Shown here: positions 1 through 5,708 of the stretch, piece by piece
How positions within the stretch are numbered: position 1 is the first letter of the stretch
How the letters are laid out: every line of letters starts with the position of its first letter
Origin: a virus
Virus record (IMG/VR): IMGVR_UViG_3300045988_004566
DNA length: 5,708 nucleotides
Direction: 5' to 3' (one strand)
Notes under the pieces: generated by a model
Told to the model about the DNA's origin: nothing
Databases searched by the model: none
Seen by the model: the letters and a program-made list of their open reading frames with translations, nothing else
Made by a program: the position numbers and the translations under genes

Positions 1-85
1 ACCTATGGGGCATGGGTCAAATAGAGATAGCACAAGCAGTGCCAGAAACATATAGATATGTTGCAGGATACGTAACAAAAAAAAT
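1..85. repeat. Wrap-around copy of 5624-5708 (terminal redundancy of a circular contig)
   Basis: Base-by-base identity with the last 85 nt of the window. The rep reading frame is continuous across the junction. Confidence 0.95.
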
Positions 86-551: not shown

Positions 552-598
552 CACACGTGCGCACACGCGCGATAGCGCGCACGCGCGCACGCGCGATA
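552..598. repeat. Alternating purine-pyrimidine (CG/CA) tract forming an imperfect palindrome, with an internal direct repeat
   Basis: Strict R/Y alternation runs over 552-571 and again over 575-595. The 11-nt direct repeat CACGCGCGATA occurs at 564-574 and 588-598, extending to 16 nt with one mismatch (559-574 vs 583-598). The fold-back is centred on ATAG (572-575), with stems 567-571/576-580 and 556-562/585-591. Confidence 0.85.
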
Positions 599-633
599 TA
601 ATATTAACTTGTTGTAGGAGTAGTAGTAAGCAA

Positions 634-808
634 TGTGGAAAAGTTGAAAAGTACTAAAATTTAACACTAAAGCGTAAATAAAAAGCAAAAAACACTGTTG
701 AAAGTTTTGTTGAAAACTTGTTGAATTGTTGAAAGTCCGTCAAAATAACGAAAATCATTGTGCAACATTTTGTGGAAAACCTGTTGAAAGTGTTGAAAGT
801 GTTGAAAA
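634..808 (+). repeat. Iteron-like array: ten same-orientation copies of TGTTGAAAR in three clusters
   Basis: Copies start at 634 (TGTGGAAAA), 642 (AGTTGAAAA), 696, 708, 719 (TGTTGAATT), 727, 771 (TGTGGAAAA), 782, 791 and 800. Bases 782-808 are three head-to-tail 9-mers. The spacers are A-rich. Confidence 0.85.
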
Positions 809-899
809 CGCGCACAGCGCTAACAAGGAATGGATTAGCCGAGCTCCGCATACGCTACGCACGGCAGGGCGCTAAAGCGCCATTCAAACCAAAAAACAA

Positions 900-953: not shown

Positions 954-1343
954 ATGATAAAAAGCTATTTCATGGCCAGAGACGCAAACGAAAAAGTAGG
1001 ACAGCACTTTAAAGTAAAAGAATTTGCATGTAAAGACGGCTCACAAGTAGTATTCATAGACGAGCACCTAGTATCAATCTTAGACATTCTCAGAAACAAA
1101 ATCGGAAAACCAGTTATCATAACCAGCGGATACAGAACACCGGAGTGGAACAAAAAATGCGGAGGGGCAAAGTATAGCTACCACATGTGCGGCATGGCAG
1201 CAGACATCCGAGTAAATAAAATGAGCGCAAAAGAAATTGCCAACGAACTGAATGCAATCGTACCGGATGAATGCGGCATTATCGTATACAATAGTTGGGT
1301 ACATTTCGATGTACGAACCAGCAAATACAGAAAGGAGGTATAA
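954..1343 (+). CDS. Zinc D,D-/L,D-peptidase of the M15 (LAS, Peptidase_M15_3/VanY-like) type; putative peptidoglycan hydrolase, 129 aa
   Basis: The motif string matches the M15 family: FKVKEFACKDG...GKPVIITSGYRTPEWNKKCGGAKYSYHMCGMAADI...IIVYNSWVHFDVR. It shows SGYR, N..GG, S.H..G.AAD and VHxD elements. Putative zinc ligands are His 1182-1184, Asp 1203-1205 and His 1302-1304. SD GAGGGAG (943-949) precedes the ATG at 954. The track start at 900 (TTG) is the -35 box of the promoter. Confidence 0.85.
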   Translation: MIKSYFMARDANEKVGQHFKVKEFACKDGSQVVFIDEHLVSILDILRNKIGKPVIITSGYRTPEWNKKCGGAKYSYHMCGMAADIRVNKMSAKEIANELNAIVPDECGIIVYNSWVHFDVRTSKYRKEV

Positions 1344-1822: not shown

Positions 1823-2062
1823 ATGAAACACAATTATTATGGCATTTGGGATAGCGTAGCAAAATGCTATGCATGGGTAGGCGAAAGCAAAAACGATGCA
1901 ACGTTTGCACGGATGTGCAACGTAATGGCAAAAGACGAAAAGACTTTTATCGGCCAGAGTCCGCAGGACTACACCGGCTTTAAGCTGGCAGTGTTCGAAG
2001 ATGAGCTTGGCGCGTTCACAAACGATACCGAAAAGGTTTGGGAGGGCAAGCCGAATGAATAA
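1823..2062 (+). CDS. VP5-like small non-structural protein, 79 aa
   Basis: It sits immediately upstream of VP3, where gokushoviruses carry VP5. The pattern YYGIWDSVAKCY...NDATFARM...SPQDYTGFKLAVFEDELGAF resembles the Y.(V/I)YD.KA..F..PF...N...A.R.F...PEDY.L..LG.(Y/F)DDE.G.F pattern of that family, recalled from memory. A weak SD AAGGA lies at 1810-1814. Confidence 0.65.
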   Translation: MKHNYYGIWDSVAKCYAWVGESKNDATFARMCNVMAKDEKTFIGQSPQDYTGFKLAVFEDELGAFTNDTEKVWEGKPNE

Positions 2063-2465
2063 ACGATATGAAGAAGGGCGAGAGCCCTTCTTTTCAGAAT
2101 CAGGAGAAAAATTCCGAAAGCAATACATCTGGACAAAAGACGAGAAAGGGCAGGAAAAACTGCAAGAAACAGCACCAATTGACATCCAGCAAGAAATTGA
2201 GTCGTATTCAGATGAATGCGATATTAAAAACATTGTCCGAAAAGCTAGTTTCGATCCGCAGTTTCTGGAAAGTCTGTCACAGGGAGCACTAAACGGAACA
2301 GAAGTGGATATCACCGAATTCCCGCAGAACATTCACGAGTATCACAGGATGATAGCAACCGCACAAGCAAACGCAATGAAGCTTGAAGAACTGCAAAAAA
2401 TGGCAGCAGAAAAAGCAAAAGCAGAACCTAAAGCAGAACCTGAAGCGAAGGAGGAAGAAAAGTGA
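2055..2465 (+). CDS. VP3: Internal scaffolding protein VP3, 136 aa
   Basis: GGAGG (2041-2045) lies 9 nt upstream of the ATG at 2055, which overlaps the upstream stop (ATGAATAA). The conserved SDECDIKNIVRK block matches the (K/S)DECDINNI(M/V) block of Chlamydia-phage-type scaffold proteins. The C-terminus is acidic and lysine-rich. The stop overlaps the VP1 start (GTGA). Confidence 0.85.
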   Translation: MNKRYEEGREPFFSESGEKFRKQYIWTKDEKGQEKLQETAPIDIQQEIESYSDECDIKNIVRKASFDPQFLESLSQGALNGTEVDITEFPQNIHEYHRMIATAQANAMKLEELQKMAAEKAKAEPKAEPEAKEEEK

Positions 2466-4141
2466 ATCGAAACAATGAACGACACTTCAACCAAATTCCA
2501 GAAATGAAGGCAAGTCGAACACGGTTCAACCGAGACCAGACAATCCTCACAACATTTGACTCCGGAAAACTAATTCCGTTTTACGTAGATGAAGTATTAC
2601 CGGGCGACACCTTCAACGTAAACACATCAGCAATCATCCGGATGACCACACCGAAGTATCCGGTAATGGATGATGCATTCATTGATTTCTACTATTTCTA
2701 CTGTCCTAACCGTATTTTGTGGGAAAACTTCAAATACTTCATGGGCGAAGAAGAAAGCACGCCATGGATGCCATCGAAAGAATACAAAGTGCCAAAAATC
2801 AAAATTCAAGGAACAGATGAAGACCCAAAACCAGCAGAAAGAACAATCCTGGACTACATGGGAGTGCCCACAAAAATAAAGAAAGCATTCGAAATCAATG
2901 CACTACCAATTCGAGCATACGTAATGATCTGGAATGAATTTTTCAGAGATGAAAACGTAGACAATCAAGCAGCATGGAGAAAAAACGACAGTGATGTAGA
3001 ATACCAAGCAAGTGAAACTACAATAGATAGTCTGCTGAAACTCGCAGAAAACGGCGGATACTGCTTACCGGTAAACAAATTCCACGACTACTTTACCAGT
3101 TGTTTGCCGTATCCTCAGAGAGGGCCAGAAGTGACACTGCCGTTAAATGGTAACGCGCCAGTTGGAATGTATAAAAACACAGATCTAACAACGTTTGGAA
3201 CGGTAGGAGGACACACCACAATCTACTTAAACCAAGAGCTAAGCGGAAGCGCACTTGCGCCAAATATCGGCAACAGCCAAAACCCAAACTACAAAGGATA
3301 TTCGCAAGTAACAGGCAGCTCAGACCCGGGAAAGCAAGTGAACGACACGGCCTACTTAGGTGCAGACCTTAGCAAAATAACCGCAACAACTATCAACGAC
3401 TTGCGAAAAGCCGTAGCAGTACAGCAGTACTATGAAGCACTTGCAAGAGGCGGCAGCAGATACCGTGAACAGGTGCAAGCACTGTGGAACGTCACAATCA
3501 GCGACAAAACGGTACAGATTCCTGAATATTTGGGTGGTGGACGCTATCACGTCAACATGAATCAAATTGTCCAGACCAGCGGGCAGCAGAACAACACAGA
3601 TACACCCATCGGCGAAACTGGCGCAATGTCAGTGACACCGGTAAATGAAAGTTCCTTCACCAAATCTTTCGAAGAACACGGTTTCGTCATTGGCGTATGT
3701 TGTGTGCGACACAATCATAGTTACCAGCAAGGCCTGGAACGTTTCTGGAGTCGAAGCGACAAGCTGGACTACTATGTACCTCAGTTCGCAAACTTAGGAG
3801 AGCAGCCTGTAAAAAAGAAAGAAATCATGCTCACCGGCGAAGCAACAGATGAAGAAACGTTTGGTTATCAGGAAGCATGGGCTGACTACCGAATGAAGCC
3901 AAACCGGGTATCTGGTCTCATGAGAAGCAACGCAACAGGTACACTGGACTTCTGGCACTACGCGGACAACTACAGCACCGTACCGACATTAAGTCAGGAA
4001 TGGATGGCAGAAGGAAAAGCAGAAATTGCGAGAACGCTCATCGTACAGAATGAGCCGCAGTTCTTCGGTGCAATCCGAGTAGCGAACAAAACGACAAGAC
4101 GTATGCCGTTGTACAGCGTACCGGGCTTGTACAAACTGTAA
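2462..4141 (+). CDS. VP1: Major capsid protein VP1 (Microviridae F-protein family), 559 aa, GTG start
   Basis: Several hallmark motifs are present: N-terminal RHFNQIP...SRTRFNRDQ..LTTFDSGKLIPFYVDEVLPGDTF, plus TINDLRKAVAVQQYYEALARGGSRYREQ, IPEYLGGG and FGYQEAWADYR. AAGGAGG (2448-2454) lies 7 nt upstream of the GTG at 2462. The first in-frame ATG (2504) would delete the conserved N-terminus. Confidence 0.97.
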   Translation: MNRNNERHFNQIPEMKASRTRFNRDQTILTTFDSGKLIPFYVDEVLPGDTFNVNTSAIIRMTTPKYPVMDDAFIDFYYFYCPNRILWENFKYFMGEEESTPWMPSKEYKVPKIKIQGTDEDPKPAERTILDYMGVPTKIKKAFEINALPIRAYVMIWNEFFRDENVDNQAAWRKNDSDVEYQASETTIDSLLKLAENGGYCLPVNKFHDYFTSCLPYPQRGPEVTLPLNGNAPVGMYKNTDLTTFGTVGGHTTIYLNQELSGSALAPNIGNSQNPNYKGYSQVTGSSDPGKQVNDTAYLGADLSKITATTINDLRKAVAVQQYYEALARGGSRYREQVQALWNVTISDKTVQIPEYLGGGRYHVNMNQIVQTSGQQNNTDTPIGETGAMSVTPVNESSFTKSFEEHGFVIGVCCVRHNHSYQQGLERFWSRSDKLDYYVPQFANLGEQPVKKKEIMLTGEATDEETFGYQEAWADYRMKPNRVSGLMRSNATGTLDFWHYADNYSTVPTLSQEWMAEGKAEIARTLIVQNEPQFFGAIRVANKTTRRMPLYSVPGLYKL

Positions 4142-4180: not shown

Positions 4181-5050
4181 ATGGCAGCATTATCAGGATT
4201 ATTAACAGCGCTCAACGTAGCCGGAAACATTGCAAGCACAGTTGGAACATTTGCAAACGCTGGTAAACAAATCGCCGGCGCATTCGGCGGATGGGGTCAA
4301 GAAGGCGGAAGCCAAAGCCAAGGCGGAAGCCAAAGCCAAGGCGGCGGACATTCAGAGAGCGGAAGCCAAGCCGGAACAAACATTCAACAGGTAAACGACT
4401 GGCTTAAACAGGCATACGCATACCAAGGGCAAGAAGCCGCCATGCAAGGTAAATACAACAGTCAAAGTATGCTTAAACAGATGGGTTACAACACCTTACA
4501 AGCAATCATGCAAGGCGTATACAACCACATTGAGAACAATGTAGCCATGAACTACAACAGTGCAGAAGCACTAGCAAACCGTGAATGGCAAGAGCACATG
4601 AGCAATACAAGCTATCAACGTGCCGTTGAGGACATGAAAAAAGCAGGGCTCAATCCAATCTTAGCATTCGCAAATGGTGGCGCAAGCACACCGGGTGGAA
4701 GCGCGGGAACAATCAGCGGTGCGAGTATGGGACTGGCGAGCAGCAGCGCACTAGGAGTGAGCAGAAGCGGTGGATTTGTACCAAATGCATACTCAAGTTC
4801 AAGTTGGAGTCAAAGCGATTGGTATAATGCAGCACAAAGCTGGCAGCAAATGCTTAGCGAAACACATATGACACCGTACGGACTGCAAAAGGCACTTACG
4901 GAAGTCGGAGACAACACAAAAGAAGCCATCACAAAGGCAACTGATAAGATGGGAAAAGGAAAAAGCACAGAACAAAGCAGAAGTATGAAACCGCAGGACA
5001 AAACAGGGTCATACGGAGAAAAAAGAAAGCCGGGTGATTATCTTAGATGA
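4181..5050 (+). CDS. VP2: Minor capsid / DNA pilot protein VP2, 289 aa
   Basis: It follows VP1 as in gokushoviruses. The N-terminus is hydrophobic and Gly/Ala-rich, followed by a Gly/Ser/Gln low-complexity tract. The conserved block NTSYQRAVEDMKKAGLNPILAF (about 4601-4681) matches the (S/T)..QR...D(L/M)K.AGLNP.L signature of VP2 proteins. Confidence 0.9.
   Translation: MAALSGLLTALNVAGNIASTVGTFANAGKQIAGAFGGWGQEGGSQSQGGSQSQGGGHSESGSQAGTNIQQVNDWLKQAYAYQGQEAAMQGKYNSQSMLKQMGYNTLQAIMQGVYNHIENNVAMNYNSAEALANREWQEHMSNTSYQRAVEDMKKAGLNPILAFANGGASTPGGSAGTISGASMGLASSSALGVSRSGGFVPNAYSSSSWSQSDWYNAAQSWQQMLSETHMTPYGLQKALTEVGDNTKEAITKATDKMGKGKSTEQSRSMKPQDKTGSYGEKRKPGDYLR
4304..4344 (+). repeat. Tandem 18-nt repeat inside VP2 (GGCGGAAGCCAAAGCCAA, 2.3 copies) encoding GGSQSQ GGSQSQ GG
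   Basis: There are exact copies at 4304-4321 and 4322-4339, followed by a partial GGCGG at 4340-4344. Confidence 0.9.
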
Positions 5051-5708
5051 GTTGTTACAAGCCATTAATAAGGCTGTACAACCCGGAAAATAAAGACATA
5101 AGCGGGCGAGTGTATTCACTTACCCGCTTTTCTGAAATAAGCGGGAAACAGCTCAAGTATGAAGATTTGATGTACAGAAAAGACATCATGTTGATACCGT
5201 GCGGCCAGTGCATCGGATGCAGAATCAGACAAAGAGAGGACTGGACAACACGGATAGAATTAGAAGCGCGAGACTACCCAAGAGAAGAAGTTTGGTTTAT
5301 CACACTTACCTATGATGATGATCACGTACCGGGCATGATAGTAAACACAGGCGAAATCATGCGAAAAGTACAATACGTCTGGAAACCGGGAGAGAAACGC
5401 CCTGAAAGCGTCCAAACATTACTGTATACTGACGTTCAAAAGTTCTTAAAACGTCTTAGAAAGGCTTATAGGGGCAAATTACGCTATTTTGTAGCTGGAG
5501 AATACGGCGAACAGACAGCCAGACCGCATTATCATATGATACTATATGGATGGCAACCAACAGACCTAGAACACCTATACAAAATACAACATAACGGATA
5601 CTACACAAGTAAATGGCTAACAGACCTATGGGGCATGGGTCAAATAGAGATAGCACAAGCAGTGCCAGAAACATATAGATATGTTGCAGGATACGTAACA
5701 AAAAAAAT
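5047..5708 (+). CDS. VP4: Replication initiation protein VP4 (HUH rolling-circle endonuclease), N-terminal 220 codons; open at the window end and continues at base 3
   Basis: The ATG at 5047 overlaps the VP2 stop (ATGA, 5047-5050). My hand translation is MSCYKPLIRLYNPENK...PCGQCIGCRIRQREDW...VWFITLTYDD...ARPHYHMILYGW...KWLTDLWGMGQIE, with no stop through 5708. RCR motif 1 is FITLTY (5296-5313) and the HUH motif is HYH (5527-5535). The M-x-C-x-x-P-L N-terminus and the CxxCxxC element are typical of gokushovirus VP4. The ORF track missed it because it has no in-window stop. Confidence 0.93.
   Translation, partial: MSCYKPLIRLYNPENKDISGRVYSLTRFSEISGKQLKYEDLMYRKDIMLIPCGQCIGCRIRQREDWTTRIELEARDYPREEVWFITLTYDDDHVPGMIVNTGEIMRKVQYVWKPGEKRPESVQTLLYTDVQKFLKRLRKAYRGKLRYFVAGEYGEQTARPHYHMILYGWQPTDLEHLYKIQHNGYYTSKWLTDLWGMGQIEIAQAVPETYRYVAGYVTKK
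5100..5133 (+). promoter_or_regulatory. Terminator-like hairpin inside the 5' end of rep
   Basis: AAGCGGG (5100-5106) pairs with CCCGCTT (5123-5129). An inner 4-bp stem pairs 5109-5112 with 5117-5120 around a TATT loop. The hairpin runs into TTTTCT. The 3' arm can instead pair with a second AAGCGGG at 5139-5145. Confidence 0.5.
5624..5708. repeat. Wrap-around copy of 1-85
   Basis: Identical to bases 1-85. Confidence 0.95.

Follow-up and report, generated by a model that had tools for sequence, protein, structure and literature searches.

What is the role of a GC-rich tract of strictly alternating pyrimidine and purine nucleotides at positions 552–595 of a gokushovirus genome, and on which of the two strands does it fold? 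The sequence in question is the IMG/VR record IMGVR_UViG_3300045988_004566, and we refer to the whole of this stretch of 5708 nt as the window. It contains the complete circular genome of a gokushovirus (5623 nt), followed by an assembly overlap of 85 nt. All its genes are carried by the + strand, and the tract lies within the sole large non-coding block, at 444–953. Comparison with related genomes indicates that positions 552–595 together make up a single GC-rich hairpin with two arms and a stem of about 20 bp, and that the strand on which this hairpin folds well is the complementary, non-coding strand.

The tract comprises two strictly alternating runs, one of 20 nt at 552–571 (CACACGTGCGCACACGCGCG) and a second of 21 nt at 575–595, with the break ATA(G) at 572–575 between them. 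The runs are 77% G+C. The direct repeat CACGCGCGATA occurs at 564–574 and again at 588–598, and there are palindromes CACGTG at 554–559 and GTGCGCAC at 557–564. A preliminary description of the window had listed these features, and all were found where it had placed them; its coordinates for the alternating runs are right, but the string that it quoted for 552–571 omitted the initial CA. Elsewhere in the genome the next-longest alternating runs are of 12 and 10 nt. In 2000 genomes generated by a first-order Markov model the longest run had a mean length of 13.2 nt, and because just 19 of the 2000 contained even one run of 20 nt or more, the two adjacent runs of 20 and 21 nt are beyond chance.

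We compared the tract with those of relatives drawn from 15 GenBank records, 80 IMG/VR loci (collected via the C-terminus of VP4) and further whole contigs; a VP4 search with distant relatives added just seven loci. Thirty-six unique tracts have the form 20 + linker + 21, and with the arms anchored on the linker these provide 720 stem cells. In the mirror register a T on the + strand is nearly always opposite an A, and there are 125 A·C appositions against 4 of T·G. Each A·C mismatch is read as a G·T wobble on the complementary strand, so that 99.4% of the stem cells are paired there, compared with 82.6% for the same structure on the coding strand. Changes on both sides have occurred at six stem pairs (28 cells), a level reached in none of 500 shuffles. 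If the register is slid by 2, keeping the alternation, pairing is 87–93% and just 0–2 pairs are changed on both sides. Thus pairing on the complementary strand is maintained across the relatives by compensatory and wobble changes.

In the window itself the complementary strand forms 19 unbroken pairs, 553–571 with 576–594, with a free energy of −21.4 kcal/mol. The + strand forms a broken fold of 7 + 5 bp with a 4-nt loop at −16.3 kcal/mol, no better than its dinucleotide shuffles (z = −0.62). The preliminary description was therefore right to regard the tract as a structure-forming element, and the hairpin is real, but it had drawn the fold on the + strand and the good fold lies on the other. 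Among 60 unique tracts the complementary strand gives the more stable fold in 58; mean energies are −25.1 versus −19.9 kcal/mol for the coding strand using DNA parameters, and −39.5 versus −30.1 kcal/mol using RNA parameters. Measured against shuffles that preserve both alternation and composition, the complementary strand has a mean z of −1.12, with 16 of the 60 tracts below −2. The mean z of the coding-strand fold is −0.03, and this rules out selection for a + strand hairpin.

The direction of the mismatches leads to the same place. For this analysis the register was chosen in a strand-neutral manner using Watson–Crick pairs only, and each locus was oriented by its own VP1 or VP4. The coding strands of 85 unique tracts then contain 1386 Watson–Crick pairs, 326 A·C, 17 G·T and 8 other appositions; T is opposite A in 90% of cases, and A is opposite T in just 32%. 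A·C exceeds G·T in every one of 23 sequence clusters. Base frequencies at 4-fold degenerate sites predict an A·C:G·T ratio of only ∼3.7:1, and the single-member clusters provide about 77 A·C against 3 G·T (hand tally), with a binomial P = 9e-6 that treats the cells as independent and so overstates the significance. The asymmetry exceeds compositional expectation. Selection acting on the + strand would tolerate T·G in preference to A·C, and since the reverse is seen, the hairpin does not appear to have been selected on that strand. A cruciform, or a symmetric binding site in duplex DNA, predicts no asymmetry at all, and neither of these explains the strand bias.

The same reasoning may account for the alternation. 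On the folding strand a C·G pair could pass to T·G and then to T·A with no pair lost at any step, while any transversion would break the pair on both strands; a (CG)n hairpin would therefore drift only by wobble-compatible transitions, and so remain strictly alternating. The tract does have the sequence character of Z-DNA, namely some 12 bp or more of unbroken alternation that is mostly CG, and the Z-prone composition remarked upon in the preliminary description is genuine (runs of 20 and 21 nt). Yet Z-DNA is not required as the explanation, because the wobble-limited hairpin suffices.

How well is the hairpin conserved? Among 64 informative close relatives, a number that includes the window, 59 carry the full tract, one has half of it and four have none (L039, L077, L095 and the aberrant contig L043, in our numbering of loci). 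Retention thus amounts to 92% among close relatives, and the tract persists also in lineages with only ∼70% genome identity. Among distant members of the clade it is found in MG945388, MG945867, KT264801 and KT264784, with stems of 14–30 bp, and is absent from KX513876, MT121961, MG945135 and KT264799. The preliminary description had proposed conservation as a check on its ideas, and this has been borne out in close relatives and in distant gut gokushoviruses alike. No such tract is present in the VP1-oriented gokushoviruses examined outside the clade, Chp2, SpV4 and phiMH2K included. The exact 21-mer of the second arm was found in 62 IMG/VR contigs, mostly of microvirus size (4–6 kb). In a 16-way alignment the composition of the tract is present in all the sequences, with invariant C positions and purines that are either G or A. 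The linker in relatives is AA, ATA, TA, GTA, TAA or AAA; on the complementary strand uninterrupted stems of 19–23 bp are closed by T-rich loops of 3–4 nt. The number of arms is three (in L078), two or one, and the polarity of the tract relative to the genes is the same in all tract-bearing genomes.

A number of other identities were tried for the tract and rejected. There was no match to the dif consensus of XerCD sites at up to 3 mismatches, no intrinsic terminator or sigma-70 promoter at the tract on either strand, and no Rfam match to any known RNA family. It is not explained as a decoy for avoided restriction sites, as the observed/expected ratio for GCGC is 1.07 (not avoided) and that for CGCG is 0.64 (mildly avoided). 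A 45-amino acid open reading frame crosses the tract on the minus strand (551–688), but is implausible as a coding sequence given that the tract and its flanks vary in length among relatives. Lastly, a tandem direct repeat (CACGCGCGATA twice in the window, three arms in L078) would place its T and A positions in register, and they are mirrored instead.

If the hairpin is a replication signal, where is the DNA nicked by the VP4 Rep? The preliminary description had pointed to TAATATTAA at 599–607, which is followed by ACTTG at 608–612. This does not withstand comparison. Allowing up to one mismatch to TAATATTAC there are two matches in the genome (one site, read on both strands) against 1.41 expected, and 80 of 200 shuffles equal this. 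Of 59 relatives, only 19 have TAATATTAA at 40 nt or less from the tract, and with looser anchoring none has TAATATTAC near it. Moreover, in the geminivirus and circovirus origins TAATATTAC occupies the loop of a stem–loop, and here the match is 3′ of the hairpin. The resemblance to the CS-6 element of ssoA-type single-strand origins has not survived either: 23 of 59 tracts contain TAGCG and none has it extended to TAGCGT or TAGCGA, so that the conserved hexamer (TAGCGT/A) of the ssoA terminal loop is lacking. The likeness to the phiX174 origin stands in part. The ACTTG core is conserved at 608–612, but the contiguous phiX174 sequence CAACTTG↓ATATTAATAAC (arrow, nick site) is not found at 596–612, where ATATTAA precedes ACTTG. 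A closer match is located on the opposite strand, in a hairpin that follows VP4 at 453–499, where TTACTTGATA is contiguous at 472–485 of the complementary strand.

This second hairpin is homologous to a gokushovirus element with the architecture stem-TTACTTGAT-stem-TAGGTGACAC. The same arrangement, with TTACTTGAT followed by TAGGTGA(CAC/T), is found in the intergenic hairpin of Chp2, and the SpV4 version is AAACTTGATAAG...TAGGTGAT. The element contains the phiX174 nick core ACTTG↓AT. In a pattern scan it was on the coding strand in 18 of 18 VP1-oriented sequences from outside the clade (Chp2, SpV4 and 16 IMG/VR contigs), whereas the window and three relatives carry it on the non-coding strand; a motif in the same position is on the complementary strand in the other examined clade relatives too. 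On that strand its stem contains about 27 G·T against 1 A·C among unique sequences (by tally). By homology the 453–499 hairpin is probably the element nicked by VP4, and a better candidate than 596–612, so that an attractive but mistaken location for the Rep nick can be set aside.

What then is the AT-rich patch that directly follows the tract in the window? Its affinities are with the sequence on its other side. Positions 607–628 are a strongly conserved core, A.CTTGTTGTAG..GTAGTA.TA, and a perfect DnaA box TGTGGATAA is found at the aligned position in some relatives. On the complementary strand the region reads TTTTCCACA-TTGC-TTA CTA CTA CTC CTA-CAACAAG-TTAATATTATAT, that is, a box, a 4-nt spacer, five NAN triplets and an AT-rich stretch. 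The basal unwinding system of bacterial origins (PMC6669920) has been searched for by the rule of a DnaA box, a spacer of up to 16 bp and at least three NAN triplets (PMC8287927), and the layout in the window conforms to this. The oriC arrangement, in which these parts and a following AT-rich stretch share one orientation, is thus matched in layout by the segment from the box to the AT patch, with DnaA binding putative. We also note that the 10-mer ACTTGTTGTA, part of the conserved TTAACTTGTTGTAGG at 605–620, recurs in the loop of the intergenic hairpin of phiMH2K (L168, 3310–3330). TTAACTTGTTGTAGG also resembles the general ori loop TTACTTGATGTAAC, and may be a second Rep-type motif, instead of or besides DnaA-trios.

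The module moves independently of the hairpin. The whole unit, including the AT patch, is turned round with respect to the genes in a minority of relatives, namely L011, L027, L032, L039, L053, L073, L085, L094, MG945388, MG945867 and KT264801 (the numbering of inverted-module loci includes L158–L160, of which L159 is MG945867 and L160 is KT264801). The unit sits between the GC tract and ACGCGCACAGCGC, which shares ACGCGCAC with the tract. In L161 (KT264784), L162 (KX513876) and L163 (MT121961) the module is in the VP2–VP4 intergenic region rather than downstream of VP4, and of these only KT264784 has the GC tract, where 25 nt separate it from the ori-like hairpin downstream. Where the tract is present it remains near the VP4-adjacent hairpin with unchanged polarity while the module flips or moves; L081 and L094, for example, have the tract in common and modules in opposite orientation. 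The distance from the tract to CTTGTTGTAG in relatives is 8–63 nt, and is greater than 20 nt in 23 of 54. These inserts, and the mobility of the patch with the module, dispose of the earlier idea that the patch is the partner of the tract, and the comparison indicates that the tract is a unit separate from both AT patch and DnaA-box-like module. The inverted modules are alike, down to a shared right-hand junction, which suggests a single old inversion spread by recombination and not repeated flipping. The preliminary description is supported in that the tract lies in the replication-control region of the genome.

By analogy with plasmid and phage systems, we judge the chances about evenly balanced that the GC hairpin is a single-strand replication signal on the non-coding strand, of the kind of the single-strand origins (sso) and single-strand initiation sites (ssi) of plasmids. 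That strand would be single-stranded either transiently during replication of the duplex, or because it is displaced and packaged. The stability of the hairpin would keep it folded on DNA coated with single-stranded DNA-binding protein (SSB); at this site a host RNA polymerase, primase or PriA-type primosome would initiate the opposite strand or help in its synthesis. In support of this reading, the ori-like hairpin shares both folding strand and wobble bias with the GC hairpin. Plasmid sso elements are dispensable and interchangeable, and the cassette-like behaviour of the tract, which varies in copy number and presence and gives way to or is joined by other GC hairpin bundles at this place in some relatives, resembles theirs. 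Like ssoA, ssoU, ssoT and ssoW of rolling-circle plasmids, and ssi, it is a non-coding fold specific to strand and orientation, situated near a Rep nick site, dispensable, and conserved more in structure than in sequence. It differs from them in being a simple 44-nt hairpin with a single (CG/TG)n stem of 20 bp, compared with long imperfect palindromes of 130–200 nt, in lacking a conserved CS-6 (the TAGCG sequences are on the poorly folding strand), and in folding on the strand opposite the genes. Among small single-stranded DNA phages the n′/PriA site of phiX174, the primase origin of G4 and the minus-origin hairpins of M13 are likewise stable intergenic hairpins near replication signals, plausibly resistant to SSB. 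Those elements are on the packaged, coding strand, in contrast to the good fold of the tract, whose purely alternating CG/TG composition also sets it apart; no likeness in sequence was noticed, no comparison aimed at it having been made. Conserved hairpins of other small microviruses have been proposed as possible sites of minus-strand initiation (PMC9865509).

Several observations weigh against this interpretation. The tract is missing from the complete-looking genomes L039, L077, L095, KX513876, MT121961, MG945135 and KT264799, and is therefore not essential. Its placing relative to the ori-like hairpin also varies with genome layout: on the folding strand the tract precedes that hairpin in the window and follows it in KT264784. 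The coding strand is A-rich and T-poor, and this must account for part of the asymmetry; the counted cells are not phylogenetically independent; and the VP1–VP2 terminator hairpin, tried as a coding-strand control, had too few non-Watson–Crick pairs for calibration. Nor could a polarised mutation spectrum be obtained from relatives so divergent that identity reaches 93% in just 2 of 3570 VP1 pairs. Finally, the virion strand of the Microviridae is by textbook account the coding strand, in which case the well-folding strand would be single-stranded only transiently.

A more tentative proposal, possible but clearly the less probable of the two, is that the strand displaced and packaged by this clade is the complement of its genes, and that the GC hairpin would then be the complementary-strand origin on virion DNA. 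In the simplest consistent picture the non-coding strand, bearing both the GC hairpin and the TTACTTGAT hairpin, would be the one displaced and perhaps packaged. Three indirect lines of evidence point in this direction. Both hairpins fold best on the non-coding strand; the TTACTTGAT...TAGGTGACAC element is inverted relative to the genes here, compared with its position on the coding strand in all the outside-clade sequences of the scan; and the 4-fold degenerate sites of the coding strand are A-rich and T-poor (A 0.51, G 0.18, C 0.17, T 0.13 in the window), the mirror of Chp2 (T 0.50) and SpV4 (T 0.65). The last of these is weakened by phiMH2K, which is likewise A-rich at these sites (0.47), and by the A-rich contig L340, yet both have the element on the coding strand.

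The candidate single-strand signal must be weighed against other explanations. One is that the tract works in duplex replicative-form DNA, as Z-DNA or as a cruciform that absorbs or signals negative supercoiling and modulates the adjacent DnaA-type unwinding module. The composition is classically Z-prone, resembling d(CG)n and d(CA)n tracts in having alternating runs of at least 20 bp in a small supercoiled circle, the linker and most flanks are AT-rich, which favours extrusion of a cruciform, and in the window the tract adjoins the AT patch of the module. Z-DNA is thus physically possible in the supercoiled replicative form, but leaves unexplained the bipartite structure with a phase-breaking AT-rich centre, the T opposite A at mirror positions and the pairs changed on both sides. 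Furthermore, the two kinds of one-arm change are equivalent in a duplex, so that neither Z-DNA nor a cruciform predicts an asymmetry of 326:17. In genomes with inverted modules the tract adjoins the box end and is more than 200 nt from the AT patch (∼195 nt in KT264784), and several genomes have the module without the tract. We consider this explanation unlikely. A good deal less probable is the model of the preliminary description, a plus-strand rolling-circle origin in which the GC fold presents the AT-rich nick motif (TAATATTAA / ATATTAACTTG) to the VP4 Rep. HUH enzymes often cut beside hairpins, the conserved ACTTG at 608–612 matches the phiX174 nick core CAACTTG↓A as well as 10 nt of the phiMH2K hairpin loop, and eight of the nine letters of the geminivirus and circovirus TAATATT↓AC are found beside a GC-rich inverted repeat. 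Against this, TAATATTAA is at chance level, is not conserved and lies outside the hairpin; inserts of up to 63 nt part the motif from the tract, and the motif flips strand or moves by hundreds of nucleotides while the tract stays. The phiX174 blocks at 596–612 are reordered and associated with no hairpin, the loop of the GC hairpin is not conserved, VP4 is not a CRESS Rep, and a far better homologue of the gokushovirus ori-like element exists at 453–499, carrying the ACTTG core in its loop.

Might the tract have no function for the phage at all? It could be a palindrome derived from a (CG)n microsatellite, or a selfish or recombinogenic GC cluster, shaped by strand-biased mutation and hairpin-templated repair. 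Its variable arm number and its loss from some genomes are in keeping with such an origin, as are its presence at mosaic junctions (L081 and L094), the coming and going of other GC-rich hairpin bundles with G7/C7 runs in the region, and the strong A bias of the coding strand. We nevertheless doubt it, given the retention of the tract across the clade within a genome of only ∼5.6 kb, the preservation of pairing through changes on both sides at six positions, and an asymmetry above compositional expectation. It is rather improbable that the tract works as antisense RNA, whether as a primer or as a small transcript, folded into a G·U-tolerant hairpin. RNA structures are classically marked by their tolerance of wobble pairs, the fold of complementary sense is on average 9.4 kcal/mol more stable using RNA parameters, and primer RNAs are copied from hairpin templates in phage G4. 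However, no promoter-like site on the complementary strand leads into the tract and there is no terminator-like tail on either strand; the flanks differ between lineages and module orientations, so that no promoter position is conserved, and the lack of an Rfam match counts against an RNA here too.

The features of the non-coding block and the genes of the window are collected in Table 1.

Table 1. Coordinates of features in the window, with the strand on which each is read or folds.
Feature	Position	Strand	Remarks
Ori-like hairpin after VP4	453–499	−	stem-TTACTTGATAGG-stem-CTAGGTGACAC on complementary strand; covarying stems, invariant loop
GC hairpin arm	553–571	−	3′ arm on complementary strand; (CR)n on coding strand
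Hairpin loop	572–575	−	ATAG on + strand, CTAT on complementary strand; AT-rich, sequence not conserved
Second GC hairpin arm	576–594	−	Consensus GCGCGCACGCGCGCACGCGCG
AT-rich patch ATATAATATTAACTTG	596–611		Belongs to neighbouring module, not to hairpin
Conserved motif TTAACTTGTTGTAG and TAG-type triplets	605–631	+	Triplets TAG GAG TAG TAG TAA at 616–630; columns (near-)invariant in 16 relatives
DnaA-box-like repeat array	634–808	+	TGTGGAAAA (634–642), then TGTTGAAAR repeats
ACGCGCACAGCGC	808–820		Right boundary of invertible module; shares ACGCGCAC with tract; follows module directly in both orientations
M15 peptidase	954–1343	+	
VP5	1823–2062	+	
VP3 scaffold	2001–2465	+	
VP1 capsid	2462–4141	+	
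VP2	4181–5050	+	
VP4 Rep	5047, across junction, to 443	+	phiX174 A / gokushovirus VP4 Rep family, Pfam PF23343

The closest public records to the window are gut gokushoviruses from humans, pigs and monkeys. The best match, KT264791, has 83.7% genome identity, but its intergenic block is 93% identical. The overlap of the assembly is an exact terminal repeat, window 1–85 being identical to 5624–5708. In the coding regions of the window GATC is strongly depleted (4 observed against 14.4 expected, a ratio of 0.28), as is GGCC with a ratio of 0.51, which suggests restriction or Dam-type pressure by the host; a search for a host or prophage, using the ori-like hairpin against genome contigs, gave no match. 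Further structured sequence is found in some relatives. Additional bundles of G-run/C-run hairpins (e.g. CCCCCCCTAATAGGGGGGG) are located between the ori-like hairpin and the GC tract in L005 (MG945694), L159 and L160, and look like swappable structured cassettes. The aberrant contig L043 (IMGVR_UViG_3300045988_086966, 8781 nt) has unrelated AT-rich sequence after its ori-like hairpin and spacer, with neither tract nor module, and probably represents either an assembly chimera or another recombinant.

Gokushoviruses are among the most abundant single-stranded DNA phages of the mammalian gut. In the full-text literature we found no account of the GC tract, of Z-DNA or DnaA boxes in the Microviridae, or of a mapped gokushovirus origin. 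Our analysis identifies a conserved, strand-specific candidate replication signal, with a phiX174-like nick hairpin on one side and a DnaA-box module of host type on the other. It also shows that the asymmetry of wobble pairs can be used to assign a DNA hairpin to one strand, even on a conservative reading. The strand bias raises the question of which strand this clade packages. If it should prove to be the antisense strand, then the textbook mRNA polarity of microvirus virion DNA would need an exception, and strand-aware virome methods, together with gene calling on single-stranded DNA reads, would be affected.

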